This document shows positions 4,192-49,662 of a DNA stretch of 49,662 bases, one piece after another. Source of the DNA: Escherichia phage 1W. Location of the stretch: the sequence record OM475428, one strand, 5' to 3'. Both the position numbers and the translations under genes were made by a program. The notes under the pieces are model-generated. The model was not told the origin of the DNA, ran no database searches, and saw only the letters and a program-made list of their open reading frames with translations. Within the stretch, counting starts at the first letter, position 1; each line of letters begins with the position of its first letter.

Positions 4192-5686
4192 TCTTTCACA
4201 CATTATTGCCGCAGCATTCAATGAACCGCTGCTTCTGGAGCCCGCCTATGCGCGGGTTTTCTTTTGCGCGCTCGGGCGCGAGATGGGGGCAGCAAGTCTT
4301 TCGGTACCACAACAGCAGGTACAGTTTGATGCTCTCGGAATGCTGGCTGAAACGGACGAGTACATGGCCGGAGGTAAACGACCGGCCCGTGTTTACAGGG
4401 TGGTGAACGGTATTGCTGTACTGCCGGTGACCGGCACGCTGGTGCACCGGCTGGGTGGTATGCGGCCATTTTCCGGAATGACAGGCTATGACGGTATTGT
4501 CGCCTGTCTTCAGCAGGCAATGGCGGATAGCCAGGTGCGGGGCGTACTGCTGGACATTGACAGTCCGGGCGGGCAGGCCGCCGGCGCGTTTGACTGCGCT
4601 GACATGATTTACCGCCTCCGTCAGCAGAAGCCGGTCTGGGCACTGTGCAATGACACGGCCTGTTCTGCAGCCATGCTGCTGGCGTCGGCCTGCTCCCGAC
4701 GGCTGGTTACCCAGACATCCCGTATCGGTTCCATTGGCGTGATGATGAGCCATGTCAGCTATGCCGGTCATCTGGCGCAGGCCGGTGTGGATATCACGCT
4801 GATTTACTCAGGGGCGCACAAGGTGGATGGCAATCAGTTTGAAGCGTTGCCGGCAGAGGTTCGCCAGGACATGCAGCAGCGGATTGATGCGGCGCGCCGG
4901 ATGTTTGCCGAAAAAGTGGCGATGTTTACCGGTCTGTCTGTTGATGCAGTCACAGGAACAGAGGCCGCTGTTTTTGAAGGTCAGTCCGGCATTGAGGCCG
5001 GGCTGGCGGATGAATTAATCAATGCGTCGGATGCCATCAGTGTGATGGCCACGGCGCTGAACAGTAATGTCAGAGGAGGCACTATGCCGCAATTAACTGC
5101 AACGGAAGCCGCCGCGCAGGAGAACCAGCGAGTGATGGGGATCCTGACATGCCAGGAAGCGAAAGGACGTGAACAGCTTGCCACGATGCTGGCAGGACAA
5201 CAGGGCATGAGCGTTGAACAGGCCCGGGCGATTCTGGCCGCGGCGGCACCGCAGCAGCCGGTGGCATCCACGCAGAGTGAAGCCGATCGCATTATGGCGT
5301 GTGAAGAAGCGAACGGTCGTGAACAACTGGCGGCAACGCTGGCGGCGATGCCGGAGATGACGGTGGAAAAAGCCCGCCCGATCCTGGCTGCTTCACCGCA
5401 GGCGGATGCCGGACCATCACTCCGTGATCAGATCATGGCACTGGATGAGGCAAAAGGGGCTGAGGTGCAGGCTGAACAGCTGGCTGCCTGCCCGGGAATG
5501 ACTGTGGAGTGCGCCCGGGCTGTGCTGGCTGCGGGATCAGGTAAGGCAGAACCGGTCTCTGCATCCACAACCGCCATGTTTGAACATTTCATGGCGAACC
5601 ATTCACCGGCAGCGGTACAGGGTGGCGTGCCACAGACGTCAGCAGACGGTGATGCGGACGTGAAAATGCTCATGGCCATGCCATGA
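4181..5686 (+). CDS. C: Head maturation protease / scaffold (gpC with nested Nu3-like C-terminal region)
   Basis: N-terminal two thirds match lambda gpC (ClpP/S49-like; AFNEPLLLEPAYARVFF, VWALCNDTACSAA). GTG start overlaps the B stop. C-terminus carries three tandem copies of an approximately 45-aa motif. Confidence 0.85.
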   Translation: MRRNLSHIIAAAFNEPLLLEPAYARVFFCALGREMGAASLSVPQQQVQFDALGMLAETDEYMAGGKRPARVYRVVNGIAVLPVTGTLVHRLGGMRPFSGMTGYDGIVACLQQAMADSQVRGVLLDIDSPGGQAAGAFDCADMIYRLRQQKPVWALCNDTACSAAMLLASACSRRLVTQTSRIGSIGVMMSHVSYAGHLAQAGVDITLIYSGAHKVDGNQFEALPAEVRQDMQQRIDAARRMFAEKVAMFTGLSVDAVTGTEAAVFEGQSGIEAGLADELINASDAISVMATALNSNVRGGTMPQLTATEAAAQENQRVMGILTCQEAKGREQLATMLAGQQGMSVEQARAILAAAAPQQPVASTQSEADRIMACEEANGREQLAATLAAMPEMTVEKARPILAASPQADAGPSLRDQIMALDEAKGAEVQAEQLAACPGMTVECARAVLAAGSGKAEPVSASTTAMFEHFMANHSPAAVQGGVPQTSADGDADVKMLMAMP

Positions 5687-5722
5687 AGCCAGTGCTGACC
5701 ATCAATAGGAGGTTTTAACAAT

Positions 5723-6070
5723 ATGGTGACGAAAACCATCACTGAACAGCGTGCGGAAGTACGTATTTTTGCCGGTAATGATCCGGCTCATACCGCCACA
5801 GGCAGCAGCGGGATTTCTTCTGCAACACCGGCTCTGACGCCCCTGATGCTGGATGAAGCCACCGGGAAACTGGTGGTCTGGGACGGACAGAAAGCCGGTA
5901 GTGCGGTTGGCATACTGGTACTGCCGCTTGAAGGCACAGAGACGGCGCTGACGTATTACAAGTCGGGAACCTTTGCGACGGAGGCAATCCACTGGCCTGA
6001 AAGTGTGGATGAACACAAAAAGGCCAACGCCTTTGCTGGCAGTGCCCTGAGTCACGCGGCGCTGCCGTAA
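5723..6070 (+). CDS. D: Head decoration protein (gpD)
   Basis: 115 aa; similarity to lambda gpD (DPAHTAT, TPLMLD, YYKSGTF, AFAG) from recall. Confidence 0.85.
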   Translation: MVTKTITEQRAEVRIFAGNDPAHTATGSSGISSATPALTPLMLDEATGKLVVWDGQKAGSAVGILVLPLEGTETALTYYKSGTFATEAIHWPESVDEHKKANAFAGSALSHAALP

Positions 6071-6127
6071 CACGTTATCAGGCCACCGCGCTGGCCTGAC
6101 TGATTTCTGAATGAAAGGAACTGATTT

Positions 6128-7156
6128 ATGGGATTGTTTACGACCCGCCAGTTACTCGGTTATACCGAACAAAAAGTTAAATTTCGTGCGCTGTTTCTGG
6201 AACTGTTTTTCCGCCGTACGGTGAATTTCCATACCGAAGAGGTGATGCTGGACAAAATTACCGGAAAAACGCCGGTGGCGGCCTATGTCTCCCCGGTTGT
6301 TGAAGGAAAAGTGCTGCGTCATCGTGGTGGTGAAACCCGCGTGTTGCGTCCGGGCTACGTCAAGCCGAAACACGAATTTAATTACCAGCAGGCGGTTGAG
6401 CGCCTTCCTGGTGAAGATCCATCTCAACTGAATGATCCGGCTTACCGCCGTCTGCGTATCATTACCGATAACCTCAAACAGGAAGAGCACGCGATTGTCC
6501 AGGTGGAAGAAATGCAGGCGGTAAATGCTGTGTTGTATGGCAAATACACCATGGAAGGAGACCAGTTCGAGAAAATTGAGGTCGATTTTGGCAGGTCGAC
6601 GAAGAATAACATCACTCAGGGTAGTGGTAAGGAGTGGTCAAAACAGGATCGTGACACGTTCGATCCTACACATGATATTGACCTCTACTGCGACCAGGCC
6701 AGCGGTCTTGTGAATATTGCCATTATGGACGGTACCGTCTGGCGTCTTCTGAATGGTTTTAAGCTGTTCCGCGAAAAACTGGATACCCGTCGCGGTTCAA
6801 ATTCTCAACTCGAAACGGCAGTGAAAGATCTGGGCGCAGTGGTGTCCTTCAAGGGGTATTACGGCGATCTGGCCATTGTGGTGGCGAAAATGTCTTATAT
6901 AGCAGAAGACGGTATCGAAAAACGTTATCTTCCAGATGGCATGCTGGTTCTGGGGAATACTGCTGCAGATGGGATCCGTTGTTACGGTGCCATTCAGGAT
7001 GCTCAGGCGTTGTCCGAAGGTGTGGTGGCCTCTTCCCGTTATCCGAAACACTGGCTGACGGTAGGGGATCCCGCCCGTGAATTTACCATGACGCAGTCCG
7101 CGCCGCTGATGGTGTTGCCGGACCCGGATGAGTTTGTGGTGGTACAGGTGAAATAA
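6128..7156 (+). CDS. E: Major capsid protein (gpE)
   Basis: 342 aa, lambda gpE length and position; HK97-fold capsid gene after D. Confidence 0.9.
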   Translation: MGLFTTRQLLGYTEQKVKFRALFLELFFRRTVNFHTEEVMLDKITGKTPVAAYVSPVVEGKVLRHRGGETRVLRPGYVKPKHEFNYQQAVERLPGEDPSQLNDPAYRRLRIITDNLKQEEHAIVQVEEMQAVNAVLYGKYTMEGDQFEKIEVDFGRSTKNNITQGSGKEWSKQDRDTFDPTHDIDLYCDQASGLVNIAIMDGTVWRLLNGFKLFREKLDTRRGSNSQLETAVKDLGAVVSFKGYYGDLAIVVAKMSYIAEDGIEKRYLPDGMLVLGNTAADGIRCYGAIQDAQALSEGVVASSRYPKHWLTVGDPAREFTMTQSAPLMVLPDPDEFVVVQVK

Positions 7157-7939: not shown

Positions 7940-8518
7940 ATGGCCATACAGGGTCTTGAGCAGGCCGTTGAAAACCTCAGCCGTATCAGCAAAACGGCGG
8001 TGCCCGGTGCCTCCGCAATGGCCATTAACCGCGTTGCTTCATCCGCGATATCGCAGTCTGCGTCACAGGTTGCCCGTGAGACAAAGGTACGCCGGAAACT
8101 GGTAAAGGAAAGGGCCAGGCTGAAAAGGGCCACGGTCAAAAATCCGCAGGCCAGAATCAAGGTTAACCGGGGGGATTTGCCCGTAATCAGGCTGGGTAAC
8201 GCGCGGGTTGTCCTGTCCCGACGCAGGCGTCGTAAAAAGGGGCAGCGTTCATCCCTGAAAGGTGGCGACAGCGTGCTTGTGGTGGGAAACCGTCGTATTC
8301 CCGGCGCGTTTATTCAGCAACTGAAAAATGGCCGGTGGCATGTCATGCAGCGTGTGGCCGGGAAAAAACGTTACCCCATTGATGTGGTGAAAATCCCGAT
8401 GGCAGTGCCGCTGACCACGGCGTTTAAACAGAATATTGAGCGGATACGGCGTGAACGTCTTCCGAAAGAGCTGGGCTATGCGCTGCAGCATCAACTGAGG
8501 ATGGTAATAAAGCGATGA
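7940..8518 (+). CDS. Z: Tail completion protein Z
   Basis: Near-identical to lambda gpZ from recall (MAIxGLEQAVENLSRISKTAVPGA...); start at the internal ATG at 7940. Confidence 0.9.
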   Translation: MAIQGLEQAVENLSRISKTAVPGASAMAINRVASSAISQSASQVARETKVRRKLVKERARLKRATVKNPQARIKVNRGDLPVIRLGNARVVLSRRRRRKKGQRSSLKGGDSVLVVGNRRIPGAFIQQLKNGRWHVMQRVAGKKRYPIDVVKIPMAVPLTTAFKQNIERIRRERLPKELGYALQHQLRMVIKR

Positions 8519-8910
8519 AACATACAGAACTCCGTGCAGCCGTACTGGATGCACTGGAAAAACATGACACCGGGGCGACGCTTTTTGATGGTCGCCCCGC
8601 TGTTTTTGATGAGGAGGATTTTCCGGCAGTTGCCGTTTATCTCACCGGCGCTGAATACACGGGCGAAGAGCTGGACAGCGATACCTGGCAGGCGGAGCTG
8701 CATATTGAAGTTTTCCTGCCTGCTCAGGTGCCGGATTCAGAGCTGGATTCGTGGATGGAGTCCCGGATTTATCCGGTGATGAGCGATGTCCCGGCACTGT
8801 CAGATTTGATCACCAGTATGGTGGCCAGTGGCTATGACTACCGGCGCGACGATGATGCGGGCCTGTGGAGTTCAGCCGATCTGACTTATGTCATTACCTA
8901 TGAAATGTGA
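8515..8910 (+). CDS. U: Tail terminator protein U
   Basis: 131 aa; near-identical to lambda gpU from recall ([43 protein letters not shown]). Confidence 0.9.
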
Positions 8911-10512: not shown

Positions 10513-13066
10513 ACCGGTAGGCGATCTGGTCGTTGATTTAAGTCTGGATGCGGCCAGATTTGACGAGCAGATGGCCAGAGTCAGGCGTCATTTTTCCGGT
10601 ACGGAAAGTGATGCGAAAAAAACAGCGGCAGTCGTTGAACAGTCAATGAACCGACAGGCGCTGGCTGCACAGAAAGCGGGGATTTCCGTCGGGCAGTATA
10701 AAGCCGCCATGCGTATGCTGCCTGCACAGTTCACCGACGTGGCCACGCAGCTTGCAGGCGGGCAAAGCCCGTGGCTGATCCTGCTGCAACAGGGTGGTCA
10801 GGTTAAGGACTCCTTCGGCGGGATGATCCCCATGTTCAGGGGGCTTGCCGGTGCGATCACCCTGCCGATGGTCGGGGCCACCTCGCTGGCGGTGGCGACC
10901 GGTGCGCTGGCGTATGCCTGGTATCAGGGTAACTCAACCCTGTCCGATTTCAACAAAACGCTGGTCCTTTCCGGTCATCAGTCGGGTCTGACGGCAGATC
11001 GTATGCTGGTCCTGTCCAGAGCCGGGCAGGCGGCAGGGCTGACGTTTAACCAGACCAGCGAGTCACTCAGTGCACTGGTTAAGGCGGGGGTAAGCGGTGA
11101 GGCTCAGATTGTGTCCATCAGCCAGAGTGTGGCGCGTTTCTCCTCTGCATCCGGCGTGGAGGTGGACAAGGTCGCTGAAGCCTTCGGGAAGCTGACCACA
11201 GACCCGACGTCGGGGCTGACGGCGATGGCACGTCAGTTCCATAACGTGACGGCGGAGCAGATTGCGTATGTTGCTCAGTTGCAGCGTTCCGGCGATGAAG
11301 CCGGGGCATTGCAGGCGGCGAACGAGGCCGCAACGAAAGGGTTTGATGACCAGACCCGCCGCCTGAAAGAGAACATGGGCACGCTGGAGACCTGGGCAGA
11401 CAGGACCGCACGGGCATTCAAATCCATGTGGGATGCGGTGCTGGATATTGGTCGTCCTGATACCGCGCAGGAGATGCTGATTAAGGCAGAGGCCGCGTTT
11501 AAGAAAGCAGACGATATCTGGAATCTGCGCAAGGATGATTATTTTGTTAACGATGAAGCACGGGCGCGTTACTGGGATGATCGTGAAAAGGCCCGTCTTG
11601 CGCTTGAAGCCGCCCGAAAGAAGGCTGAACAGCAGAGTCAACAGGACAAAAATGCGCAGCAGCAGAGCGATACCGAAGCGTCACGGCTGAAATATACCGA
11701 AGAGGCGCAGAAGGCTTACGAACGCCTGCAGACACCGCTGGAGAAATATACCGCCCGCCAGGAAGAACTGAACAAGGCACTGAAAGACGGGAAAATCCTG
11801 CAGGCGGATTACAACACGCTGATGGCGGCGGCGAAAAAGGACTATGAAGCGACGCTGAAAAAGCCGAAGCAGTCCGGCGTGAAGGTGTCTGCGGGCGATC
11901 GTCAGGAAGACAGTGCTCATGCTGCCCTTCTGACGCTTCAGGCAGAACTCCGGACGCTGGAGAAGCATGCCGGAGCGAATGAGAAAATCAGCCAGCAGCG
12001 CCGGGATTTGTGGAAAGCGGAAAATCAGTTCGCAGTACTGGAGGAGGCAGCACAACGTCGCCAGCTGTCTGCACAGGAGAAATCCCTGCTGGCGCATAAA
12101 GATGAGACGCTGGAGTACAAACGCCAGCTGGCTGCACTTGGCGACAAGGTTACGTATCAGGAGCACCTGAACGCGCTGGCGCAGCAGGCGGATAAATTCG
12201 CACAGCAGCAACGGGCAAAACGGGCCGCCATTGATGCGAAAAGCCGGGGGCTGACTGACCGGCAGGCAGCGCGGGAAGCCACGGAACAGCGCCTGAAGGA
12301 GGAGTATGGCGATAATCCGCTGGCGCTGAATAACGTCATGTCAGAGCAGAAAAAGACCTGGGTGGCTGAAGACCAGCTTCGCGGGAGCTGGATGGCAGGC
12401 CTGAAGTCCGGCTGGAGTGAGTGGGAAGAGAGCGCCACGGACAGTATGTCGCAGGTAAAAAGTGCAGCCACGCAGACCTTTGATGGTATTGCACAGAATA
12501 TGGCGGCGATGCTGACCGGTAGTGAGCAGAACTGGCGCAGCTTCACCCGTTCCGTGCTGTCCATGATGACAGAAATTCTGCTTAAGCAGGCAATGGTGGG
12601 GATTGTCGGGAGTATCGGCAGCGCCATTGGCGGGGCTGTTGGTGGCGGCGCATCCGCGTCAGGCGGTACAGCCATTCAGGCCGCTGCGGCGAAATTCCAT
12701 TTTGCAACTGGAGGATTTACGGGAACCGGCGGCAAATATGAGCCAGCGGGGATTGTTCACCGTGGTGAATTTGTCTTCACGAAGGAGGCAACCAGCCGGA
12801 TTGGCGTGGGGAATCTCTACCGGCTGATGCGCGGCTATGCCACCGGCGGTTATGTCGGTACACCGGGCAGCATGGCAGACAGCCGGTCGCAGGCGTCCGG
12901 GACGTTTGAGCAGAATAACCATGTGGTGATTAACAACAACGGCACGAACGGGCAGATTGGGCCACAGGCGCTGAAGGCTGTGTATGACATGGCCCGCAAG
13001 GGTGCCCGTGATGAAATTCAGGCACAGATGCGTGATGGTGGCTTGTTATCCGGAGGTGGACGATGA
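10505..13066 (+). CDS. H: Tape measure protein (gpH)
   Basis: 853 aa, identical length to lambda gpH; coiled-coil-rich with a Gly-rich C-terminal segment; directly follows G-T. Confidence 0.9.
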   Translation: MAEPVGDLVVDLSLDAARFDEQMARVRRHFSGTESDAKKTAAVVEQSMNRQALAAQKAGISVGQYKAAMRMLPAQFTDVATQLAGGQSPWLILLQQGGQVKDSFGGMIPMFRGLAGAITLPMVGATSLAVATGALAYAWYQGNSTLSDFNKTLVLSGHQSGLTADRMLVLSRAGQAAGLTFNQTSESLSALVKAGVSGEAQIVSISQSVARFSSASGVEVDKVAEAFGKLTTDPTSGLTAMARQFHNVTAEQIAYVAQLQRSGDEAGALQAANEAATKGFDDQTRRLKENMGTLETWADRTARAFKSMWDAVLDIGRPDTAQEMLIKAEAAFKKADDIWNLRKDDYFVNDEARARYWDDREKARLALEAARKKAEQQSQQDKNAQQQSDTEASRLKYTEEAQKAYERLQTPLEKYTARQEELNKALKDGKILQADYNTLMAAAKKDYEATLKKPKQSGVKVSAGDRQEDSAHAALLTLQAELRTLEKHAGANEKISQQRRDLWKAENQFAVLEEAAQRRQLSAQEKSLLAHKDETLEYKRQLAALGDKVTYQEHLNALAQQADKFAQQQRAKRAAIDAKSRGLTDRQAAREATEQRLKEEYGDNPLALNNVMSEQKKTWVAEDQLRGSWMAGLKSGWSEWEESATDSMSQVKSAATQTFDGIAQNMAAMLTGSEQNWRSFTRSVLSMMTEILLKQAMVGIVGSIGSAIGGAVGGGASASGGTAIQAAAAKFHFATGGFTGTGGKYEPAGIVHRGEFVFTKEATSRIGVGNLYRLMRGYATGGYVGTPGSMADSRSQASGTFEQNNHVVINNNGTNGQIGPQALKAVYDMARKGARDEIQAQMRDGGLLSGGGR

Positions 13067-13392
13067 AAACCTTCCGCTGGAAAGTGAAACCCGGGATGGA
13101 TGTGACATCGGCTCCTTCCGTCAGGGAGGTGCGCTTTGGTGATGGCTATTCCCAGCGTGCGCCTGCCGGGCTGAATGCCGACCTGAAAACGTACAGCGTG
13201 ACGCTTTCTGTTCCCCGTTGGGAGGCCACGGCGCTGGAGTCGTTTCTGGCTGAGCACGGGGGCTGGAAGGCCTTTCTGTGGACGCCGCCTTATGGTTACA
13301 GGCAGATAAAGGTGACCTGCGCAAAATGGTCGTCGCAGGTCAGTATGTTGCGTGTTGAGTTCAGCGCAGAGTTTAAACAGGTGGTGAACTGA
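13063..13392 (+). CDS. M: Minor tail protein M
   Basis: 109 aa; lambda gpM length and position, overlapping the H stop. Confidence 0.85.
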   Translation: MKTFRWKVKPGMDVTSAPSVREVRFGDGYSQRAPAGLNADLKTYSVTLSVPRWEATALESFLAEHGGWKAFLWTPPYGYRQIKVTCAKWSSQVSMLRVEFSAEFKQVVN

Positions 13393-14090
13393 TGCAGGAT
13401 ATCCGACAGGAAACACTGAATGAATGCACCCGTGCGGAGCAGTCGGCCAGCGTGGTGCTCTGGGAAATCGATCTGACAGAGGTCGGTGGCGAGCGTTATT
13501 TTTTCTGTAATGAGCAGAACGAAAAAGGTGAGCCGGTCACCTGGCAGGGGCGACAGTATCAGGCGTATCCCATTCAGGGGAGCGGTTTTGAACTGAATGG
13601 CAAAGGCACCAGTACGCGCCCCACGCTGACGGTTTCTAACCTGTACGGTATGGTCACCGGGATGGTGGAAGATCTGCAGAGTCTGGTCGGCGGAACGGTG
13701 GTCAGGCGTAAGGTTTACGCCCGTTTTCTGGATGCGGTGAATTTCGTCAACGGAAACAGCGATGCCGATCCGGAGCAGGAGGTGATCAGCCGCTGGCGCA
13801 TTGAGCAGTGCAGCGAACTGAGCGCGGTGAGTGCCTCTTTTGTACTGTCCACGCCGACGGAAACGGACGGCGCTGTTTTTCCGGGACGTATCATGCTGGC
13901 CAACACCTGCACCTGGACCTATCGCGGCGATGAGTGCGGTTATCACGGTCCGGCGGTCGCGGATGAATATGACCAGCCAACGTCCGATATCACGAAGGAT
14001 AAATGCAGCAAATGCCTGAGTGGCTGTAAGTTTCGCAATAACGTCGGCAACTTTGGCGGCTTCCTTTCCATTAACAAACTTTCGCAGTAA
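13392..14090 (+). CDS. L: Minor tail protein L
   Basis: 232 aa; lambda gpL position and length; C-terminal Cys cluster (CTWTYRGDECGY ... CSKCLSGC). Confidence 0.85.
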   Translation: MQDIRQETLNECTRAEQSASVVLWEIDLTEVGGERYFFCNEQNEKGEPVTWQGRQYQAYPIQGSGFELNGKGTSTRPTLTVSNLYGMVTGMVEDLQSLVGGTVVRRKVYARFLDAVNFVNGNSDADPEQEVISRWRIEQCSELSAVSASFVLSTPTETDGAVFPGRIMLANTCTWTYRGDECGYHGPAVADEYDQPTSDITKDKCSKCLSGCKFRNNVGNFGGFLSINKLSQ

Positions 14091-14095
14091 ATCCC

Positions 14096-14839
14096 ATGAC
14101 ACAGACAGAATCAGCGATTCTGGCGCACGCCCGGCGATGTGCGCCAGCGGAGTCGTGCGGCTTCGTGGTGAGAACGCCGGAGGGGGAAAGATATTTTCCC
14201 TGCGTGAATATCTCCGGTGAGCCGGAGGATTATTTCCGGATGTCGCCGGAGGACTGGCTGCAGGCAGAAATGCAGGGTGAGATAGTCGCGCTGGTCCACA
14301 GCCACCCCGGTGGTCTGCCCTGGCTGAGTGAGGCCGACCGGCGGCTGCAGGTGCAGAGTGATTTGCCGTGGTGGCTGGTCTGCCGGGGGACGATTCATAA
14401 GTTCCGCTGTGTGCCGCATCTCACCGGGCGGCGCTTTGAGCACGGGGTGACGGACTGTTACACGCTGTTCCGGGATGCTTATCATCTGGCGGGGATTGAG
14501 ATGCCGGATTTTACGCGGGAGGATGACTGGTGGCGTCACGGTCAGAATCTCTATCTGGATAATCTGGAGGCAGCGGGGCTGTATCAGGTGCCGTTGTCAG
14601 CGGCGCAGCCGGGCGATGTGCTGCTGTGCTGCTTTGGTTCATCGGTGCCGAATCATGCCGCTATTTACTGTGGTGATGGCGAGCTGCTGCACCATATTCC
14701 TGAACAACTGAGCAAACGAGAGAGGTATACCGACAAATGGCAGCGACGCACACACTCCCTCTGGCGTCACCGGGCATGGCACGCATCTGCCTTTACGGGG
14801 ATTTACAACGATTTGGCCGCCGCATCGATCTTCGTGTGA
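14096..14839 (+). CDS. K: Tail tip assembly protein K (JAB/MPN plus NlpC/P60-like)
   Basis: Matches lambda gpK region (HSHPGG metal-binding motif); the ORF may include an N-terminal extension relative to the annotated lambda K start; overlaps I. Confidence 0.8.
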   Translation: MTQTESAILAHARRCAPAESCGFVVRTPEGERYFPCVNISGEPEDYFRMSPEDWLQAEMQGEIVALVHSHPGGLPWLSEADRRLQVQSDLPWWLVCRGTIHKFRCVPHLTGRRFEHGVTDCYTLFRDAYHLAGIEMPDFTREDDWWRHGQNLYLDNLEAAGLYQVPLSAAQPGDVLLCCFGSSVPNHAAIYCGDGELLHHIPEQLSKRERYTDKWQRRTHSLWRHRAWHASAFTGIYNDLAAASIFV

Positions 14840-15408
14840 AAACGGGGGCTGAAGCTATCCGGGCGCTGGCCACACAGCTCCCGGCGTTTCGTCAGAAACT
14901 GAATGACGGCTGGTATCAGGTACGGATTGCCGGGCGGGATGTCAGCACGTCCGGATTAACGGCGCAGTTACATGAGACTCTGCCTGATGGCGCTGTGATT
15001 CATATTGTTCCCAGAGTCGCCGGGGCCAAGTCAGGTGGTGTATTCCAGATTGTCCTGGGAGCTGCCGCCATTGCCGGATCATTCTTTACTGCCGGAGCCA
15101 CCCTTGCAGCATGGGGGGCAGCCATTGGGGCCGGTGGTATGACCGGCATCCTGTTTTCTCTCGGTGCCAGTATGGTGCTCGGTGGTGTGGCGCAGATGCT
15201 CGCACCGAAAGCCAGGACGCCCACAGCGACCAGCACGGATAACGGTAAGCAGAACACCTATTTCTCTTCACTGGATAACATGGTTGCCCAGGGCAATGTT
15301 TTGCCTGTTCTGTACGGTGAAATGCGCGTGGGGTCACGCGTGGTTTCTCAGGAGATCAGCACGGCAGACGAAGGGGACGGTGGTCAGGTTGTGGTGATTG
15401 GTCGCTGA
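14737..15408 (+). CDS. I: Tail tip assembly protein I
   Basis: 223 aa; near-identical to lambda gpI from recall, overlapping the K 3' end. Confidence 0.9.
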   Translation: MAATHTLPLASPGMARICLYGDLQRFGRRIDLRVKTGAEAIRALATQLPAFRQKLNDGWYQVRIAGRDVSTSGLTAQLHETLPDGAVIHIVPRVAGAKSGGVFQIVLGAAAIAGSFFTAGATLAAWGAAIGAGGMTGILFSLGASMVLGGVAQMLAPKARTPTATSTDNGKQNTYFSSLDNMVAQGNVLPVLYGEMRVGSRVVSQEISTADEGDGGQVVVIGR

Positions 15409-15468
15409 TGCAAAATGTTTTATGTGAAACCGCCTGCGGGCGGTTTTGTCGTTTATGGAGCGTGAGGA

Positions 15469-18400
15469 ATGGGTAAAGGCAGCAGTAAGGGGCATACCCC
15501 GCGCGAAGCGAAGGACAACCTGAAGTCCACGCAGTTGCTGAGTGTGATCGATGCCATCAGCGAAGGGCCGATAGAAGGTCCGGTGGATGGATTAAAAAGC
15601 GTGCTGCTGAACAGTACACCGGTGCTGGACAGTGAGGGAAATACCAACATCTCCGGCGTCACGGTGGTGTTCCGGGCAGGTGAGCAGGAGCAGACACCGC
15701 CGGAGGGATTTGAATCCTCCGGTTCCGAGACGGTGCTGGGTACGGAAGTGAAATATGACACGCCGATCACCCGCACCATTACGTCTGCAAACATCGACCG
15801 TCTGCGCTTTACCTTCGGTGTGCAGGCACTGGTGGAAACCACTTCAAAGGGGGACCGTAATCCGTCGGAAGTCCGCCTGCTGGTTCAGATACAGCGTAAC
15901 GGTGGCTGGGTGACGGAAAAAGACATAACCATTAAGGGCAAAACCACCTCGCAGTATCTGGCCTCGGTGGTGGTGGATAACCTGCCTCCGCGCCCGTTCA
16001 ATATCCGGATGCGCAGGATGACACCGGACAGCACCACAGACCAGCTGCAGAACAAAACGCTCTGGTCGTCATACACCGAAATCATCGATGTGAAACAGTG
16101 CTACCCGAACACGGCACTGGTCGGCGTGCAGGTGGACTCGGAACAGTTCGGCAGCCAGCAGGTGAGCCGTAATTATCATCTTCGCGGGCGCATTCTGCAG
16201 GTGCCGTCGAACTATAACCCGCAGACGCGGCAATACATCGGTATCTGGGACGGGACGTTTAAACCGGCATACAGCAACAACATGGCCTGGTGTCTGTGGG
16301 ATATGCTGACCCACCCGCGCTACGGCATGGGTAAACGTCTTGGTGCGGCAGATGTGGATAAATGGGCGCTGTATGTCATCGGCCAGAATTGCGACCAGTC
16401 GGTGCCGGACGGTTTTGGCGGCACGGAGCCGCGCATCACCTGTAACGCTTACCTGACCACACAGCGCAAGGCGTGGGATGTGCTCAGTGATTTCTGCTCG
16501 GCGATGCGCTGTATGCCGGTATGGAACGGGCAGACGCTGACGTTCGTGCAGGACCGGCCATCGGATAAGGTGTGGACCTATAACCGCAGTAATGTGGTGA
16601 TGCCGGAAGATGGCGCGCCGTTCCGCTACAGCTTCAGCGCCCTGAAGGACCGTCATAATGCCGTTGAGGTGAACTGGATTGACCCGGATAACGGCTGGGA
16701 GACGGCGACAGAGCTTGTGGAGGACACGCGGGCCATTGCCCGTTACGGTCGTAATGTCACGAAGATGGACGCCTTTGGCTGTACCAGCCGGGGGCAGGCA
16801 CACCGAGCCGGGCTGTGGCTGATTAAAACGGAGCTGCTGGAAACGCAGACCGTGGACTTTAGCGTGGGTGCTGAAGGGCTTCGCCATGTACCGGGCGATG
16901 TCATTGAAATCTGCGATGATGACTATGCCGGTATCAGCACCGGCGGGCGCGTGCTGGCGGTGAACAGCCAGACCCGGACGCTGACGCTCGACCGTGAAAT
17001 CACGCTGCCATCCTCCGGCACCACGCTGATAAGCCTGGTTGACGGGCAGGGTAATCCGGTGAGCGTGGAGGTTCAGTCCGTCACCGACGGCGTGAAGGTG
17101 AAAGTGAGCCGGGTTCCTGACGGCGTTGCCGAATACAGCGTGTGGGGGCTGAAGCTGCCGACGCTGCGCCAGCGCCTGTTCCGCTGTGTGAGTATCCGTG
17201 AGAATGACGACGGTACGTATGCCATCACCGCCGTGCAGCATGTACCGGCAAAAGAGGCCATCGTGGATAACGGGGCGCACTTTGACGGCGACCAGAGCGG
17301 AACGGTAAACGGTGTCACGCCGCCAGCAGTACAGCACCTGACCGCAGAAGTCACCGCAGACAGCGGGGAATACCAGGTGCTGGCGCGCTGGGATACGCCG
17401 AAGGTGGTGAAGGGGGTGAGCTTTATGCTTCGCCTGACCGTGGCAGCGGATGACGGCAGTGAGCGGCTGGTCAGCACGGCCCGGACGACGGAAACCACAT
17501 ACCGCTTCACGCAACTGGCGCTGGGAAACTACAGGCTGACAGTCCGGGCGGCAAATGCCTGGGGGCAGCAGGGCGATCCGGCATCGGTATCGTTCCGTAT
17601 TGCCGCACCGGCAGCGCCGTCGCGGATTGAGCTGACGCCGGGCTATTTTCAGATCACCGCCACGCCGCATCTTGCCGTTTATGATCCGACGGTACAGTTT
17701 GAGTTCTGGTTCTCGGAAAAGCGGGTTGCGGATATCAGGCAGGTTGAAACTACAGCCCGCTATCTTGGCACGGCGCTGTACTGGATAGCTGCCAGTATCA
17801 ATATCAAGCCGGGCCATGATTATTATTTTTATATCCGCAGTGTGAATACTGTTGGCAAATCGGCATTCGTGGAGGCTGTCGGTCGGGCGAGCGATGATGC
17901 GGAAGGTTACCTGGATTTTTTCAAAGGCCAGATAACCGAATCCCATCTCGGCAAGGAGCTGCTGGAAAAAGTCGAGCTGACGGAGGATAACGCCAGCAAA
18001 CTGGAGGAGTTCTCGAAAGAGTGGAAAGACGCCAACGATAAATGGAATGCCATGTGGGGTGTCAAAATTGAGCAGACCGAAGACGGCAAACATTATGTCG
18101 CGGGGCTTGGCCTCAGCATGGAGGATACAGAGGAAGGCAAACTGAGCCAGTTCCTGGTTGCCGCTAACCGTATCGCGTTTATTGACCCGGCAAACGGGAA
18201 TGAAACGCCGATGTTTGTGGCGCAGGGCAACCAGATATTCATGAACGAAGTGTTCCTGAAGTATCTGACGGCTCCCACCATTACCAGCGGCGGCAATCCG
18301 CCGGTATTTTCCCTGACACCGGACGGGCGGCTGACGGCGAAAAATGCCGATATCAGCGGTAACGTGAATGCGAACTCCGGGACGCTCAATAATGTCACGA

Positions 18401-18867
18401 TTAACCAGAACTGTCGGATTATGGGAAAACTGTCTGCCAACCAGATTGAAGGTGATATTGTCAAAACGGTGGGAAAAGCCTTTCCGAGAAATGGCAGTTA
18501 TGCCAGCGGTACAATAACGGTCACTGTGTACGATGACCAGGCTTTTGACCGTCAGATAGTAATCCCACCCGTTCTGTTTCGCGGTGGTAAGCATGAAAAC
18601 TTCAACAGCAACAACCAACAGTCATACTGGTATTCAACCTGTAAGCTGCAGGTACTGAAGAACGGACAGGAAATCTTTCAGCAACCCGCGACGGATGTCA
18701 GCAGGGTATTTTCATCAGTCATTGATATGCCTGCCGGACACGGCCATGTCACCCTGACTTTCAATGTTTCTTCATATGGTGCTAATAACTGGACGCCAAC
18801 GACCAGTATCAGCGACCTTCTTGTTGTTGTGATGAAGAAATCTACAGCCGGTATCAGTATCAGTTGA
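15469..18867 (+). CDS. J: Central tail fibre / host specificity protein J
   Basis: 1132 aa, same length as lambda gpJ, located after I. Confidence 0.9.
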
Positions 18868-18925
18868 ATTTTATAACCCAGATACGGGTGCCAGAAATGG
18901 CGCCTTTTTTATTTGTGGAGTGAAT

Positions 18926-20854
18926 ATGGCAGTACAGATTTCAGGCGTGCTGAAAGACGGTGCAGGAAAACCGATACAGAACTGCACCATTCAGCTCAAA
19001 GCAAAACGTAACAGCACCACGGTTGTGGTGAACACGGTGGCCTCAGAAAATCCGGATGAAGCCGGACGTTACAGCATGGATGTCGAGTATGGCCAGTACA
19101 GCGTTATCCTGCTGGTTGAAGGTTTTCCGCCTTCACATGCCGGGACCATCACCGTGTATGAGGATTCTAAGCCGGGGACGCTGAATGATTTTCTGGGGGC
19201 CATGACGGAAGAGGATGTCATGCCGGAGGCATTGCGTCGTTTTGAGGTAATGGTGGAGGATGTGGCACGCAACGCTGAAGCCGCCTCTCAGAGCGCAGCG
19301 GCAGCAAAGAAATCAGAAACAGCAGCGGCATCGTCCAGGAACGCGGCGAAAACATCAGAGACGAATGCAGGTAACAGCGCGAAAGCGGCAGCTTCTTCAA
19401 AAACAGCCGCACAAAACGCAGCAACAGCGGCAGAACGTTCAGAGACAAATGCCCGTGCGTCAGAAGAAGCCTCCGCAGACAGTGAAGAGGCTTCCCGCCG
19501 TAATGCAGAGTCAGCCGCTGAAAATGCCGGAGTCGCCACCACAAAAGCGCGGGAGGCTGCAGCAGACGCAACAAAGGCCGGGCAGAAAAAGGATGAGGCT
19601 CTGTCGGCAGCGACACGAGCTGAAAAGGCGGCAGACCGCGCAGAAGCCGCAGCGGAAGTGACTGCAGAGCCCTATGCGAATATAGTGCCGCCGCTGCCTG
19701 ATGTGTGGATACCGTTTAACGATTCACTGGATATGATTGCGGGTTTTTCTCCGGGCTATAAAAAAATAGCTATTGGTGACGATGTGGTTCAGGTCGCCAG
19801 TGATAAACAGGTTAATTTCAGTCGCGCATCAACGGCAACATATATCAACAAATCTGGCGAACTGAAAACGGCGGAAATTAATGAGCCGCGATTTGAGTGT
19901 GATGGCCTGCTTATTGAGGGACAAAGAACGAACTACATGCTCAATTCGGAAAGTCCAGCCAGCTGGGGGAAGTCATCAAACATGGATGTGCCCGAAACTG
20001 GGACGGATAGTTTTGGTTTTACTTATGGAAAGTTTGTCTGCAACGATTCTCTGGTTGGGCAAACTTCGGCTATTAATATGGCATCAATTGCTGCAACAAA
20101 GTCAGTTGATGTCTCAGGCGATAACAAGTACGTGACAACCTCATGCCGTTTTAAAACAGAACGACAGGTAAGGTTACGTATACGGTTTGATAAGTATGAT
20201 GGTAGTGCAACAACTTTTCTTGGCGATGCGTACATTGATACGCAAACGCTTGAAATTAATATGACAGGTGGTGCTGCCGGCAGAATTACGGCACGAGTCA
20301 GGAAGGATAAGACCACGGGCTGGATTTTTGCAGAGGCAACGATTCAGGCAATTGATGGTGAGTTAAAAATAGGCTCTCAGATACAGTATTCTCCTGAGCA
20401 GGGTGGGGCAACAGTATCTGGTGACTATATTTATCTTGCCACCCCACAAGTAGAGAATGGGCCGTGTGTATCATCATTTATTATTTCAGGAGGCAGCGCA
20501 ACGACAAGAGCCAGTGATTTGGTTAGTATCCCCACCAGAAATAATCTTTATAAGTTACCATTTACTTTTTTACTTGAGATTCATAAAAACTGGGATATTG
20601 CACCAAACGCCGCACCCCGCGTGTGGGATATAGCAGCCAATACCGGGCAATCAGCAATTGCAGCAATCAACAGAGGTAGTGGTAAGTTATATATGAGTCT
20701 GTCAAACCCTTCAGGCTCGTATGTTAATAGCGCAGCGACAGATGTATTTGCAGAGAAAACCACATTTGGATGTATTGCAAAAGCTGATGGTCACTTTCAT
20801 GTGGTGACAAATGGTAAAGCGGTTAATGAAGTTTATTGTGAATATAATGGGTAA
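18926..20854 (+). pseudogene. stf: Side tail fibre gene interrupted near its 3' end by an IS66-family insertion; encodes a product lacking the last 43 residues
   Basis: N-terminus near-identical to lambda Stf (MAVxISGVLKDGxGKPxQNCTIQLKAxRNSTTVVVNTV) with Ala/Ser-rich repeats. The stop codon TAA is supplied by the first bases of the IS left end at 20851. Confidence 0.8.
20843..20850. repeat. 8-bp target site duplication TATAATGG (left copy)
   Basis: Identical 8-mer immediately flanks both IS ends (20843-20850 and 23383-23390). Confidence 0.8.
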
Positions 20855-20935
20855 GCGTAAACTGACCGCCGTATGTAGCCATCAGACGAGAATTGGTAAC
20901 TTAGACGCCCATCTGATATAGACGGACATCTAAGT

Positions 20936-21361
20936 ATGGAATTACAGGACTGGCGAAAAGAACCTCGTAAAAACTATTCGAATGAATTCAAACTTCGTAT
21001 GGTGGAACTGGCATCACAACCTGGAGCTTGTGTTGCACAGATTGCACGTGAAAATGGCGTCAATGATAATGTTATTTTCAAATGGCTCAGGCTCTGGCAG
21101 AACGAAGGGCGTGTTTCGCGGCGTCTTCCGGTAACGACCTCTTCTGACACTGGCGTTGAATTATTACCTGTAGAAATAACGCCGGATGAGCAGAAAGAAC
21201 CTGTGGCGGCCATTGCGCCGTCTTTATCCACTTCCACTCAGACCAGAGTCAGTGCCAGTTCCTGCAAGGTGGAATTCCGTCACGGTAACATGACGCTGGA
21301 AAATCCATCGCCAGAGCTGCTCACAGTGTTGATCCGTGAACTGACCGGGAGGGGAAGATGA
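20936..21361 (+). CDS. IS66 family accessory protein (orf1/TnpA-like, HTH)
   Basis: 141 aa; IS66 orf1-like N-terminus; overlaps orf2 by 4 nt. Confidence 0.8.
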   Translation: MELQDWRKEPRKNYSNEFKLRMVELASQPGACVAQIARENGVNDNVIFKWLRLWQNEGRVSRRLPVTTSSDTGVELLPVEITPDEQKEPVAAIAPSLSTSTQTRVSASSCKVEFRHGNMTLENPSPELLTVLIRELTGRGR

Positions 21362-21708
21362 TCTCACTCCCATCAGGTACCCGTATCTGGCTCGTTGCCG
21401 GCGTTACCGATATGCGTAAATCCTTCAACGGACTGGGAGAACAGGTACAACATGTGCTGAATGATAATCCCTTCTCCGGTCACCTGTTTATCTTCCGTGG
21501 CCGACGGGGTGACACCGTCAAAATTCTTTGGGCTGATGCTGATGGTCTGTGCCTGTTCACCAAACGCCTGGAGGAAGGCCAGTTTATCTGGCCTGCGGTA
21601 CGTGACGGCAAGGTATCCATTACCCGCTCGCAACTGGCAATGCTCCTCGATAAGCTGGACTGGCGTCAGCCAAAAACATCCAGCCGTAACTCACTGACAA
21701 TGTTGTAA
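21358..21708 (+). CDS. IS66 family TnpB-like protein (orf2)
   Basis: 116 aa with the typical IS66 orf2 motif (RIWLVAGVTDMRKSFNGL). Confidence 0.85.
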   Translation: MISLPSGTRIWLVAGVTDMRKSFNGLGEQVQHVLNDNPFSGHLFIFRGRRGDTVKILWADADGLCLFTKRLEEGQFIWPAVRDGKVSITRSQLAMLLDKLDWRQPKTSSRNSLTML

Positions 21709-21738
21709 AAAACTCCTGACCGCATTATAAAAACGGTC

Positions 21739-23352
21739 ATGAGTCAGAAATACCTCATTCGCATCGCAGAGCTGGAAAGGTTGCTCTCTGAGCAGGCTGA
21801 AGCCCTCCGTCAGAAAGACCAGCAACTGAGTCTGGTTGAAGAGACGGAAGCCTTCCTGCGCTCTGCACTGACACGTGCCGAAGAAAAGATCGAAGAAGAT
21901 GAACGGGAAATAGAACATCTGCGGGCTCAGATAGAAAAACTGCGCCGGATGCTGTTCGGTACCCGTTCTGAAAAACTGCGTCGTGAAGTTGAACTGGCTG
22001 AGGCTCTGCTGAAACAACGTGAACAGGACAGCGATCGTTACAGTGGGCGGGAAGACGATCCTCAGGTTCCCCGCCAGTTGCGACAGTCGCGCCATCGTCG
22101 TCCGTTACCGGCACACCTTCCCCGTGAAATACACCGCCTGGAGCCAGAAGAAAGCTGTTGCCCGGAGTGTGGCGGTGAGCTGGATTATCTGGGGGAAGTC
22201 AGCGCTGAACAGCTGGAACTGGTGAGCAGTGCCCTGAAAGTGATCCGCACAGAACGGGTAAAAAAAGCCTGTACAAAATGTGACTGTATTGTTGAAGCAC
22301 CGGCGCCGTCCCGCCCGATAGAGCGTGGTATCGCGGGCCCCGGATTACTTGCCCGCGTGTTAACGGGAAAATACTGCGAACATCTGCCACTGTATCGTCA
22401 GAGTGAAATCTTTGCCCGCCAGGGTGTCGAACTGAGCCGGGCCTTACTCTCCAACTGGGTTGACGCGTGCTGCCAGTTAATGACACCGGTGAATGATGCC
22501 CTGTACCGTTATGTAATGAATACCCGCAAGGTTCACACTGATGACACACCGGTAAAGGTACTGGCACCGGGTCAGAAAAAGGCGAAAACAGGGCGTATCT
22601 GGACGTATGTCCGGGATGATCGCAATGTGGGTTCGTCATCTCCTCCAGCGGTCTGGTTCGCGTACTCGCCGAACCGGCAGGGGAAACACCCGGAGCAACA
22701 CCTCCGCCCCTTCCGGGGTATCCTGCAGGCGGATGCGTTCACAGGTTACGACAGGTTGTTCAGTGCAGAACGTGAAGGTGGTGCACTGACAGAAGTTGCG
22801 TGCTGGGCCCATGCCCGGCGAAAAATCCACGATGTATACATCAGCAGCAAAAGTGCGACGGCAGAAGAAGCCCTGAAGCGAATCAGTGAACTGTACGCCA
22901 TCGAGGATGAAATACGGGGATTACCGGAGTCAGAGCGTCTTGCCGTCAGGCAGCAGCGAAGCAAAGTGTTACTGACGTCGCTGCATGAATGGATGGTGGA
23001 GAAGAATGGTACGCTGTCGAAAAAATCCAGACTGGGCGAAGCGTTCAGCTATGTACTGAATCAGTGGGATGCCCTCTGTTATTACAGTGATGACGGTCTG
23101 GCGGAGGCGGATAATAATGCTGCGGAAAGAGCGCTTCGTGCAGTCTGTCTCGGAAAGAAAAACTTTATGTTCTTTGGCAGCGATCACGGCGGCGAGCGTG
23201 GAGCACTGTTGTACGGGCTGATCGGCACCTGCCGTCTGAACGGTATCGATCCGGAAGCGTATCTGCGCCATATCCTGAGCGTACTGCCGGAATGGCCTTC
23301 CAACCGAGTTGACGAACTCCTGCCATGGAACGTAGTACTCACCAATAAATAA
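21739..23352 (+). CDS. IS66 family transposase (orf3, DDE with zinc ribbon)
   Basis: 537 aa; N-terminal coiled coil, CPECGGEL zinc-ribbon motif, conserved IS66 transposase core. Confidence 0.85.
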   Translation: MSQKYLIRIAELERLLSEQAEALRQKDQQLSLVEETEAFLRSALTRAEEKIEEDEREIEHLRAQIEKLRRMLFGTRSEKLRREVELAEALLKQREQDSDRYSGREDDPQVPRQLRQSRHRRPLPAHLPREIHRLEPEESCCPECGGELDYLGEVSAEQLELVSSALKVIRTERVKKACTKCDCIVEAPAPSRPIERGIAGPGLLARVLTGKYCEHLPLYRQSEIFARQGVELSRALLSNWVDACCQLMTPVNDALYRYVMNTRKVHTDDTPVKVLAPGQKKAKTGRIWTYVRDDRNVGSSSPPAVWFAYSPNRQGKHPEQHLRPFRGILQADAFTGYDRLFSAEREGGALTEVACWAHARRKIHDVYISSKSATAEEALKRISELYAIEDEIRGLPESERLAVRQQRSKVLLTSLHEWMVEKNGTLSKKSRLGEAFSYVLNQWDALCYYSDDGLAEADNNAAERALRAVCLGKKNFMFFGSDHGGERGALLYGLIGTCRLNGIDPEAYLRHILSVLPEWPSNRVDELLPWNVVLTNK

Positions 23353-23382
23353 GCGTCAATACGGTGCTCCGTTGACGCTTAC

Positions 23383-23390
23383 TATAATGG
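23383..23390. repeat. 8-bp target site duplication TATAATGG (right copy)
   Basis: Direct repeat of 20843-20850 abutting the IS right end. Confidence 0.8.
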
Positions 23391-23523
23391 CGTGACCGCT
23401 GATAAAAATATCCGATTTGGAGGGCAGACGAATACTGGAGAACGACATCTGTTTGGCCATATTCGCAATTTCCGCATATGGCATAAAGAATTAAATGACA
23501 GGCAATTAAAAGAGGTCGTATGA
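23391..23523 (+). pseudogene. stf: Displaced 3' end of stf (last 43 codons plus stop), in frame with the upstream part once the IS and one TSD copy are removed
   Basis: Conceptual excision restores ...EYNG-VTADKNIRFGGQTNTGERHLFGHIRNFRIWHKELNDRQLKEVV*; the tail resembles the last strand of a LamG/ConA-like lectin domain. Confidence 0.7.
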
Positions 23524-23798
23524 AAGATTTAACTTTGAAGTTTCATGACAAACTGCAGTTTAAGGCCTTCCTGTCATCTCTTGGCTGGGCGGAAGATGAA
23601 GACCTCCAGAATAAACTGTTAGTTGATGAAATTGGTTTCACCTACACAGAAACAGGGGTAACAGAAGAGGGAGAACCTGTCTGTATCCGGAATGATGGTT
23701 ATTTTGTCAACATTCGCATTCTTGATGACTTGTTTGATGTTTCTGTATTCTCTGATTATGTCGTGGAGCTGGAAACACCGCTTCGGGAATGGAGCTGA
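23520..23798 (+). CDS. Hypothetical acidic protein, start overlapping the reconstructed stf stop (GTATGA)
   Basis: 92-aa ORF with ATG; the stop/start overlap suggests original translational coupling to stf; no recognisable family. Confidence 0.5.
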   Translation: MKDLTLKFHDKLQFKAFLSSLGWAEDEDLQNKLLVDEIGFTYTETGVTEEGEPVCIRNDGYFVNIRILDDLFDVSVFSDYVVELETPLREWS

Positions 23799-23810
23799 AA
23801 GGAGGAAATA

Positions 23811-24104
23811 ATGGATATAAGCCCCTTACTTCATGCACTTTGTGCTGTGGCTGCGCAGATACTGGTTGGTCTTTTTACCGGAAACTGGGCTTACGGAGCG
23901 ATAGCCGGTTGTACGTTCTTCATTGCGCGTGAACATACCCAGGCAGAATATCGCTGGATTGAAATGTTCGGGCATGGCAAGCGAATGAATATGCCGTGGT
24001 GGGGCGGTTTTGATCCGCGTGCTTGGGATGTGGCAAGCCTGATGGATTTTGCTGTGCCGGTGGTGGCGTGTCTGCTGGTCTGGCTGTTGGTTAATCGTGG
24101 GTGA
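23811..24104 (+). CDS. Hypothetical small membrane protein (two predicted TM segments)
   Basis: 97 aa with hydrophobic N- and C-terminal stretches, Trp-rich middle; RBS-like GGAGG upstream. Confidence 0.5.
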   Translation: MDISPLLHALCAVAAQILVGLFTGNWAYGAIAGCTFFIAREHTQAEYRWIEMFGHGKRMNMPWWGGFDPRAWDVASLMDFAVPVVACLLVWLLVNRG

Positions 24105-24195
24105 AAAAAGGTGAGCTGTATATGCAACGGAGGAAGAAACCCCGTTGCTGGAAGCCAGGAAAAAGTATCGGGTGTTGCTGTCCTCGGATGTTGTG

Positions 24196-25053
24196 CTAAT
24201 TGGGTGATAACAGATCCTGTGTATGGGAGTTTCCCTTTTTGCGTGCGTTGATGCTGGTAACGGCAAACGTCATGATGAACAAAACCGCGAATAAGACGAC
24301 AATCGTCGGAGCTGGTGCGCTGTCGATAAAAAAGGACAACCAGACACCAGTCATTGACACTATTACCGATATGCCAGTCGCCAGTAGGAGCGCAATATGA
24401 AAGCGTTGTGTCAGGAGTACCGCAATGGCGCCAGGCGCAATGAGCAGAGAAATGGAGAGAATGATACCTACCGCTTTCAGCGTCGCCACAATGGTCAGAG
24501 AGACCATGCACAGCAGCCCATAATGCAGCCATCTCGTATGCAAACCGCTTACCTGCGCCTGTTGATAATCAAAGCTGAACAGCAAAAAATCCCGCCATTT
24601 TACGCTAATAACAAGTGTAACCAGCCCGGCAATAATCATCGTCTGGATTATATCGCCGATGGTTATCCCGAGCATGTCGCCGAAAAGAATATGGTCAAGA
24701 TGTACGTCTGGTTTGACTGCAATATACAAGATCAGACCTGCGGCAAACATGCCAGAAAAAACAATCCCCATCACTGTATCTTGCTTGATTCGGCTGTTGT
24801 CTTTCAGGTATCCCGTCGCCACCGCGCAGAATACTCCGGCGACGAATGCCCCTGTAGCCAAAGGTAACCCCAGAATCCAGGCAAGCACGATGCCAGGAAA
24901 AACCGCATGACTCATCGCGTCACCCATCAGTGCCCAACCTTTCAGGACCAGAAAGACCGACAGCAGCGCACAGGGTATGGAAACTACCAGTGAAATCAGC
25001 AGTGCGTGACTCATAAAGGTGAACTGCAGTGGCTCCAGTAATAATGCCATCAT
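24196..25053 (-). CDS. sitD: Mn/Fe ABC transporter permease SitD
   Basis: 285 aa polytopic membrane protein, ABC-3 permease family; last gene of a four-gene operon with overlapping stop/start junctions. Confidence 0.85.
   Translation of the reverse strand: MMALLLEPLQFTFMSHALLISLVVSIPCALLSVFLVLKGWALMGDAMSHAVFPGIVLAWILGLPLATGAFVAGVFCAVATGYLKDNSRIKQDTVMGIVFSGMFAAGLILYIAVKPDVHLDHILFGDMLGITIGDIIQTMIIAGLVTLVISVKWRDFLLFSFDYQQAQVSGLHTRWLHYGLLCMVSLTIVATLKAVGIILSISLLIAPGAIAVLLTQRFHIALLLATGISVIVSMTGVWLSFFIDSAPAPTIVVLFAVLFIMTFAVTSINARKKGNSHTQDLLSPN

Positions 25054-49297: not shown

Positions 49298-49662
<365 letters not shown>

Follow-up and report, generated by a model that had tools for sequence, protein, structure and literature searches.

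Is the transposable element that lies across the 3' end of the side tail fibre gene of Escherichia phage 1W a genuine insertion, and if so, what does it leave of the fibre and of the phage? The locus was examined in sequence record OM475428, one strand of 49,662 nucleotides, which is referred to as the window at its full length. An earlier reading of the same letters, here called the sequence-only reading, had placed an IS66-type insertion sequence (IS) with three open reading frames (ORFs) in the side tail fibre gene stf. The account that emerges, and that we hold with high confidence, is that ISEc23 is precisely inserted in stf, that the distal part of the fibre is probably lost, and that the element is carried as a passenger in a viable and infectious phage.

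The element occupies positions 20851-23382 (+ strand, 2532 bp), the boundaries that had been assigned to it earlier, and by its sequence it is identified as a complete ISEc23, a three-gene member of the IS66 family. All three genes lie on the + strand and all ORFs are intact. The first, tnpA (20936-21361), encodes an IS66 accessory protein of 141 amino acids that matches Pfam HTH_Tnp_1 (E 5e-12) and NCBIfam IS66_ISRel24_TnpA (NF047595; 83 bits, with a cut-off of 74). Its end overlaps, as ATGA, the start of tnpB (21358-21708), the 116-aa product of which is an IS66 Orf2-like accessory protein (Pfam TnpB_IS66, PF05717, E 1e-36; NCBIfam IS66_TnpB, NF033819, E 1.6e-35). The third gene, tnpC (21739-23352), encodes an IS66-family DDE transposase of 537 amino acids, recognized by Pfam DDE_Tnp_IS66 (PF03050, E 9e-98) and by NCBIfam transpos_IS66 (NF033517, E 1.5e-135, 452 bits with a cut-off of 180), and contains in addition the zinc finger zf-IS66, the leucine zipper LZ_Tnp_IS66 and the C-terminal IS66_C domains of Pfam.

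Elements of the IS66 family typically have imperfect inverted repeats beginning with GTAA(GCG) and generate an 8-bp target duplication. The element in the window starts with GTAAGCGT and ends with ACGCTTAC, and comparison of its ends reveals 24-bp imperfect inverted repeats in which 20 of the 24 positions pair: the left repeat, GTAAGCGTAAACTGACCGCCGTAT, lies at 20851-20874 (+ strand) and the right repeat, ending in ...ACGCTTAC, at 23359-23382 (- strand). The right end is in addition internally palindromic between 23350 and 23382, where TAAGCGTCAA and TTGACGCTTA were recognized by eye around a 12-nt loop; this palindrome extends from the stop codon of tnpC into the right inverted repeat. On either side of the element stands the octamer TATAATGG, at 20843-20850 and at 23383-23390 (no strand assigned), the two copies forming the perfect 8-bp direct repeat that had been noticed before. 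Over its full length, the IS is 100% identical to many chromosomal and plasmid copies in Escherichia coli, the transposase of which is labelled by RefSeq and its annotation pipeline PGAP as 'IS66-like element ISEc23 family transposase'; the name ISEc23 used here rests on those labels. Because its ORFs are intact and its sequence is identical to that of other copies, the element is probably active.

The consequences for stf can be read from the two junctions. The truncated gene (18926-20854, + strand) encodes 642 amino acids from the annotated ATG at 18926, while the ORF is open from a GTG at 18920, which would give 644; its product matches PF08400 and PHROG 1419 and is named Stf in phage 3W. 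The IS contributes the third base of the last sense codon, GGG at 20849-20851, and all of the stop codon TAA at 20852-20854, so that the stop of the truncated gene is indeed supplied by the IS terminus. Since GGC and GGG both encode glycine, the truncated Stf carries no foreign residues. On the other side of the element, the last 43 codons of stf and the original stop remain as a detached 3' end, VTADKNIRFGGQTNTGERHLFGHIRNFRIWHKELNDRQLKEVV, at 23392-23523 (+ strand). PHROG 1419 ('tail protein', 793 positions) is split accordingly between the two pieces: the truncated ORF covers positions 299-749 and the 43-aa remnant positions 752-793 (E 1.4e-19). Conceptual excision, joining 18920-20850 to 23391-23523, yields one open frame that ends at 23523 and has 687 codons if counted from the GTG and 685 if counted from the ATG. 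The restored protein belongs to a conserved family of proteins of 686-687 amino acids with the same C-terminus, one cluster of which has 2232 members in the protein search.

The strongest support for a precise insertion comes from the natural empty site. An excision product of 1200 bp, consisting of 600 bp from each side with one copy of the repeat kept, is 100% identical to uninterrupted loci of E. coli A13 and CMZE120, and the uninterrupted locus is found in 452 genomes at a coverage of at least 80%. In E. coli A13, the empty site holds a single copy of TATAATGG, and stf runs uninterrupted into the same 92-aa and 97-aa ORFs that follow it in the window, and then into sitDCBA. The chance of an exact 8-bp repeat at two pre-specified positions is about 1.5e-5; more decisive than this probability, the existence of an empty site with a single TATAATGG shows that the repeat is not fortuitous. 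The stf allele of the window lacks one alanine codon present in most alleles, and an IS-free allele that likewise lacks it occurs in at least 3 of the top 40 empty-site matches. None of the aligned IS-free relatives has an stf that ends at the position corresponding to 20854. Taken together, these results indicate that ISEc23 transposed into stf of a lambda-like temperate Bievrevirus phage, 43 codons before its stop, and duplicated the 8-bp target TATAATGG; the IS end supplies an immediate TAA, and the gene now encodes residues 1-642, counted from the ATG, of a 685-aa fibre.

Could the insertion instead have been created by short-read mis-assembly, with the stf gene of the real phage being intact? 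The form of the window invites the question, as it is a raw short-read contig. Bases 1-129 recur at 49169-49297 as a circular overlap, which gives a true unit of 49,168 bp, and the overlap is followed by the reverse complement of the Illumina P5 adapter (GTGTAGATCTCGGTGGTCGCCGTATCATT) and then by poly-G/N up to 49662; the end of the window, 49169-49662, is an assembly artefact. The order of the genes (terminase, head, tail, J, stf, sitABCD, int/xis, immunity region, replication genes, Q and lysis) is that of a phage genome. With Escherichia phage 4A7 (NC_049946), a Bievrevirus bv4A7 according to the taxonomy line of its record, the window furthermore shares 99.996% identity over 49,168 bp, and with phage 3W (OM475430) 99.998% over 49,277 bp. 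This gene order, the near-identity to 4A7 and 3W and the terminal overlap with adapter show that the window represents a phage genome of 49,168 bp, in the form of a circularly permuted contig of short reads, and not a chromosomal segment. An exact lambda-type cos cohesive-end sequence, GGGCGGCGACCT, stands at 48944-48955, which puts the permutation of the contig, relative to the end of the mature genome, at about 0.7 kb.

The raw state of the contig is countered by the independent occurrence of the same junctions elsewhere. The 5301-bp region spanning stf, the IS and the following ORFs is 100% identical in phages Lambda_4C10 (LR595861), 4A7 and 3W, so that both junctions are present in three independent phage isolates (four records, 4A7 being represented twice). 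These are the same phage as that of the window, which differs from them in being a differently permuted raw contig with the terminal overlap, adapter and poly-G described above. Of 5426 complete, closed E. coli genomes, 125, that of strain SE15 among them, contain the left, occupied junction with 100% identity, and the perfect 8-bp duplication of a sequence that is single at empty sites is the signature of true transposition. A suspicious feature is provided by one related record, that of phage D2 (OM475427), which has the identical left stf-ISEc23 junction and a right junction that matches not stf, but the IS66 relic of CP4-44. The independent complete genomes and phage isolates effectively refute mis-assembly as the origin of the insertion, and its probability is close to nil.

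The D2 record deserves a description of its own. To the right of the IS (8404-8540 of the record), 115 bp do not come from stf. With the terminal portion of the IS included, this stretch matches at 98.6% a chromosomal IS66 relic and its flank at the end of CP4-44, near yeeW/cbtA, which is present in 3206 E. coli genomes, among them a K-12-type strain. The record further contains a split J, a truncated tnpC and many gaps, and because of these gaps its right junction is treated as a probable assembly chimera, with recombination as the other reading of the same sequence.

Complete near-identical copies of ISEc23 occur among 50,697 phage records at the stf site alone, in 4C10, 4A7, 3W and D2. Together with the 125 complete genomes, these four phage isolates indicate that the insertion is fixed in a widely sampled lineage. 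The comparison with relatives lacking the insertion, which had been proposed as a check, shows an uninterrupted stf in E. coli A13 and CMZE120 and in phages 21 (OL657228), ev017, Perceval and PhiR63_2, the stf genes of these four phages being 98-99% identical to that of the window. The sequence-only reading had also called the insertion recent. The identity of the IS to other copies, the perfect duplication and the identity of the flanks to empty sites do argue for an evolutionarily young event; however, an insertion that is fixed in a widely sampled lineage is not private to this sample, and the claim stands in that qualified form. In the prophage of SE15, an IS21-family element, ISEc12, is additionally inserted in gpJ (stretch positions 12233-18217) and would there abolish the function of the central tail tip, in contrast to the intact J of the window.

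The wide occurrence of the occupied site raises the question of whether the insertion was selected. A knock-out of Stf that slows adsorption could be favoured in structured, dense habitats, so that the IS-disrupted allele would have spread. After selection of lambda in a biofilm-like environment, 19 of 21 phages carried stf mutations (PMC2762979), and the contrast between 125 complete genomes with the occupied site and the few top-ranking matches to the exact IS-free progenitor, without the extra alanine codon, points in the same direction. However, clonal expansion of a host lineage bearing the prophage would yield the same counts, and the number given for the progenitor allele is a lower bound. 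Selection is for these reasons considered rather unlikely to be the explanation.

What the truncation costs the fibre depends on the architecture of Stf. The gene lies directly downstream of gpJ (J 15469-18867, 1132 aa; stf start at 18920/18926). Residues 3-133 form the lambda-type prophage tail fibre N-terminal domain phage_tail_N (PF08400, E 5e-69), which is followed by a low-complexity segment rich in alanine, serine and threonine. At residues of about 331-531, a middle domain matches both NF048003 of NCBIfam (GTA head spike fiber, E 9e-15) and the Rhodobacter GTA head spike fibre Rcc01080 (PDB 6tb9, E 7e-10). In the restored protein, the last ~125 residues match Pfam Laminin_G_3 (PF13385; ConA-like lectin/glucanase superfamily) with E 3.7e-6 over profile positions 27-149 of 151, and the same profile is matched by seven of nine divergent Stf alleles. 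The detached 43 residues correspond to approximately the last 40 positions of that profile and constitute the best-conserved segment of the C-terminal domain: in an alignment of 17 sequences, the final ~40 residues (IRxGGQTxxGxRHLFGHxRNFRxWHKxLxDxQ) are nearly invariant. This conservation holds among alleles in which the preceding ~130 residues are just ~50% identical and among proteins with unrelated N-terminal modules. The only one of the 17 aligned proteins that ends in ...EYNG is that of the IS-bearing phage D2.

A structural model of the tip is in line with this picture. In the AlphaFold2 model, which is of low confidence, the detached segment contains the last long strand, predicted to lie in the core (model residues 161-168), and a short C-terminal helix. 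A Foldseek search with this model returned top matches that are all ConA-like, namely the sialic-acid-binding CBM40 and the Hc regions of botulinum and tetanus toxin (E ~1e-6, TM 0.55-0.6). No significant match to PDB sequences was obtained in a profile search with the tip domain. The earlier proposal that the detached tail forms the final strand of a LamG/ConA-like domain thus receives moderate support from the Laminin_G_3 match, its recurrence among alleles and the Foldseek result. Loss of the 43 residues, including the final β-strand, would leave the distal ConA-like/Laminin_G_3 domain, which is presumably receptor-binding, unable to fold, and the side fibres may be expected to be non-functional or absent.

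Several observations speak against parts of this account. The Laminin_G_3 score of 27.6 bits is exactly the gathering cut-off (27.6). The AlphaFold2 models are of low confidence, with a mean pLDDT of 50.5 for the C-terminal 431 amino acids (alignment of 10 sequences) and of 53.9 for the 181-aa tip (nine sequences), because the homologues at hand are too alike, and the placement of the last strand is therefore indicative only. The intact middle domain, which resembles the GTA spike fibre, could keep some binding function. Finally, the activity of the IS is deduced solely from the intact ORFs and the identity to other copies.

A further explanation is that the insertion is neutral for the fibre, the truncated Stf still being assembled and binding, for example by its middle domain, with the last 43 residues dispensable. 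Phages that bear the IS are infectious, and the homologue of Rcc01080 at residues 331-531 is left intact. However, the part that is lost is precisely the best-conserved C-terminal segment, across alleles and across proteins with unrelated N-termini, and it covers the end of the Laminin_G_3 profile as well as a predicted core strand, if the low-confidence model is followed; infectivity, in turn, is explained without Stf, as J is intact and laboratory lambda lacks Stf. A truncated fibre that still functions is accordingly judged distinctly unlikely.

Loss of the fibre tip thus remains the preferred reading, and plaque formation shows what the phage can do without it. In a preprint that employs the prophage of strain 4C10 as a reporter (bioRxiv 10.64898/2026.05.26.727859), spontaneous release of phage bv_4C10 (LR595861), which has the identical insertion, amounts to ~5.5e6 PFU (plaque-forming units) per mL when assayed on E. 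coli C, and titres of Bievrevirus 4A7 rise by 2 logs (100-fold) on induction. Since LR595861 forms plaques, the IS-bearing phage is infectious. This qualifies the damage that had been predicted for the tail fibre: the tip is probably lost, yet plaque formation on E. coli C persists in 4C10 and 4A7, and the truncated fibre is dispensable for plating on this host, as in laboratory lambda. The latter is said, after Hendrix and Duda in 1992, to lack a functional Stf. Loss-of-function stf mutations of lambda are tolerated and even selected (PMC2762979), and the side fibres of Ur-lambda have been described (PMC12617516). Infection would proceed through the central tip protein J, and because lambda-like infection can take this route, the phage stays viable.

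Packaging is no obstacle either. The genome measures 49,168 bp with the IS and 46,628 bp without it; IS-free relatives have genomes of 46.7 kb, and others of 50.1 kb, so that the IS-free size resembles that of the former and the IS-bearing size stays below that of the latter. The element would thus ride as a passenger in an infectious, still packageable genome of 49.2 kb. The locus is accordingly best explained by an IS that travels as a passenger in a dispensable gene; the fibre tip is probably lost, and plating on E. coli C is retained.

A more far-reaching possibility is that this temperate phage, being infectious, serves as a vehicle by which an intact element of the IS66 family, probably an active one, is transported; the element would be tolerated because the insertion sits in a dispensable fibre gene, and the knock-out of Stf might even be advantageous through slower adsorption in dense gut communities. 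This would explain why the IS-bearing allele, with 125 genomes and four isolates, is seemingly commoner than its exact IS-free progenitor, and would run counter, as a natural example, to the view of Leclercq et al. (PMC3429520) that the shuttling of IS elements by phages is rare. It is put forward tentatively, as a doubtful extension of the passenger account. With phages 4A7 and 4C10, a natural system is at hand in which the delivery of an active IS to new hosts by a plaque-forming phage could be examined. In addition, as 4A7 (the RefSeq record of Bievrevirus bv4A7) and the experimentally used bv_4C10 both carry the truncated stf, host range and adsorption determined with them are probably those of a fibre-less variant.

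Downstream of the remnant, the insertion may also affect two small genes. The 92-aa ORF (23520-23798, + strand; PHROG 1361, E 3e-42, unknown function) begins with an ATG that overlaps the original stf stop as ATGA, as had been seen before, and the same ORF follows the intact stf of A13. The earlier suggestion that it has been uncoupled from stf translation is plausible, with an effect that is probably small: an AGAGG Shine-Dalgarno sequence is located a few bases upstream of its ATG, inside the remnant that was kept, and translation therefore need not depend on stf. The 97-aa ORF (23811-24104, + strand) matches PHROG 1443 (E 2e-58, unknown function), and the name 'putative membrane protein' for it is among the features listed for the phage 21 match. 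Neither ORF has a Pfam or NCBIfam match, and no homologue of tfa, the tail fibre assembly chaperone, was found after stf. A polar effect of the IS on the two ORFs may be supposed. A promoter and terminator scan of 18800-24300 found sites no more numerous than in shuffled controls and is no guide to such polarity. In the 52-bp gap between J and stf, a terminator-like GC-rich hairpin with a T-run lies at 18886-18915; the regional total of such sites is not above that of the shuffled controls.

Existing annotations of the locus mislead in two respects. At the stf locus of SE15 (stretch positions 18276-20204) and A13 (4676-6733), PGAP gives two overlapping items in the same frame, with starts 336 nt apart: a pseudo 'N-terminal domain' fragment and a 'phage head spike fiber domain-containing protein'. 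The corresponding ORF of the window is continuous, and the split seems to be an annotation artefact that stems from the domain model NF048003. Over the stf remnant, the records of 4A7 and 3W also place an antisense ORF of 42 amino acids (23356-23484, - strand; 'hypothetical protein'). The + strand carries conserved coding sequence of stf at these positions, for which reason the antisense ORF is almost certainly spurious. The stf split and the antisense ORF stem from PGAP and RAST annotations.

The phage also carries cargo genes. The sitABCD iron/manganese transporter genes lie just downstream of stf, from 24196 to ~27650 on the - strand. According to the annotation of the near-identical 4A7, an SMR efflux gene (emrE/qacE-like) and, between Q and the lysis genes, an OmpC-like porin gene are also present, and a partial copy of icd adjoins int.

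How does the locus compare with what is known? The insertion is real but ordinary: it is already contained in RefSeq phage and bacterial records, and ISEc23 is a catalogued element. The records of 4A7 and 3W list a 'tail protein' or 'side tail fiber protein' of 642 amino acids (Stf in 3W), followed by three genes labelled 'transposase' or 'mobile element'. The main text of Mathieu et al. 2020 (PMC6969025) and that of the 2026 4C10 preprint mention neither the IS nor the truncation of stf, and phages 3W and D2 were not described in any paper that a literature search brought up. Phages have been reported to be poorly tolerant of IS elements (PMC3429520). Against this background, the combination of infectivity and an intact IS in one phage is modestly curious but does not amount to a discovery.

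At the level of the element, ISEc23 copies in RefSeq E. coli genomes and plasmids share the 2532-bp sequence, the order tnpA-tnpB-tnpC, the GTAAGCGT termini and the 8-bp duplication; the element itself shows no differences, and its location alone is unusual. At the level of the locus, phages 21, ev017, Perceval and PhiR63_2 and the A13 prophage have the same stf allele family, with 98-100% identity, and the same 92-aa and 97-aa ORFs and sitABCD downstream, but contain no IS, their stf running uninterrupted to the ATGA overlap with the 92-aa ORF. The nearest functional parallel is offered by the frameshifted stf of lambda PaPa, as compared with Ur-lambda, and gives the disruption of a dispensable side-fibre gene a precedent: in lambda PaPa, as probably in the phage of the window, the gene is inactivated near its 3' part and plaques are formed through J, and Stf of lambda has a homologous N-terminal domain (PF08400). 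The lesion is, however, a 1-bp frameshift in lambda PaPa and an IS insertion here. Unlike lambda, furthermore, the distal part of Stf in the window is composed of GTA-spike-fibre-like and ConA-like domains, and its gene is not followed by a tfa homologue.

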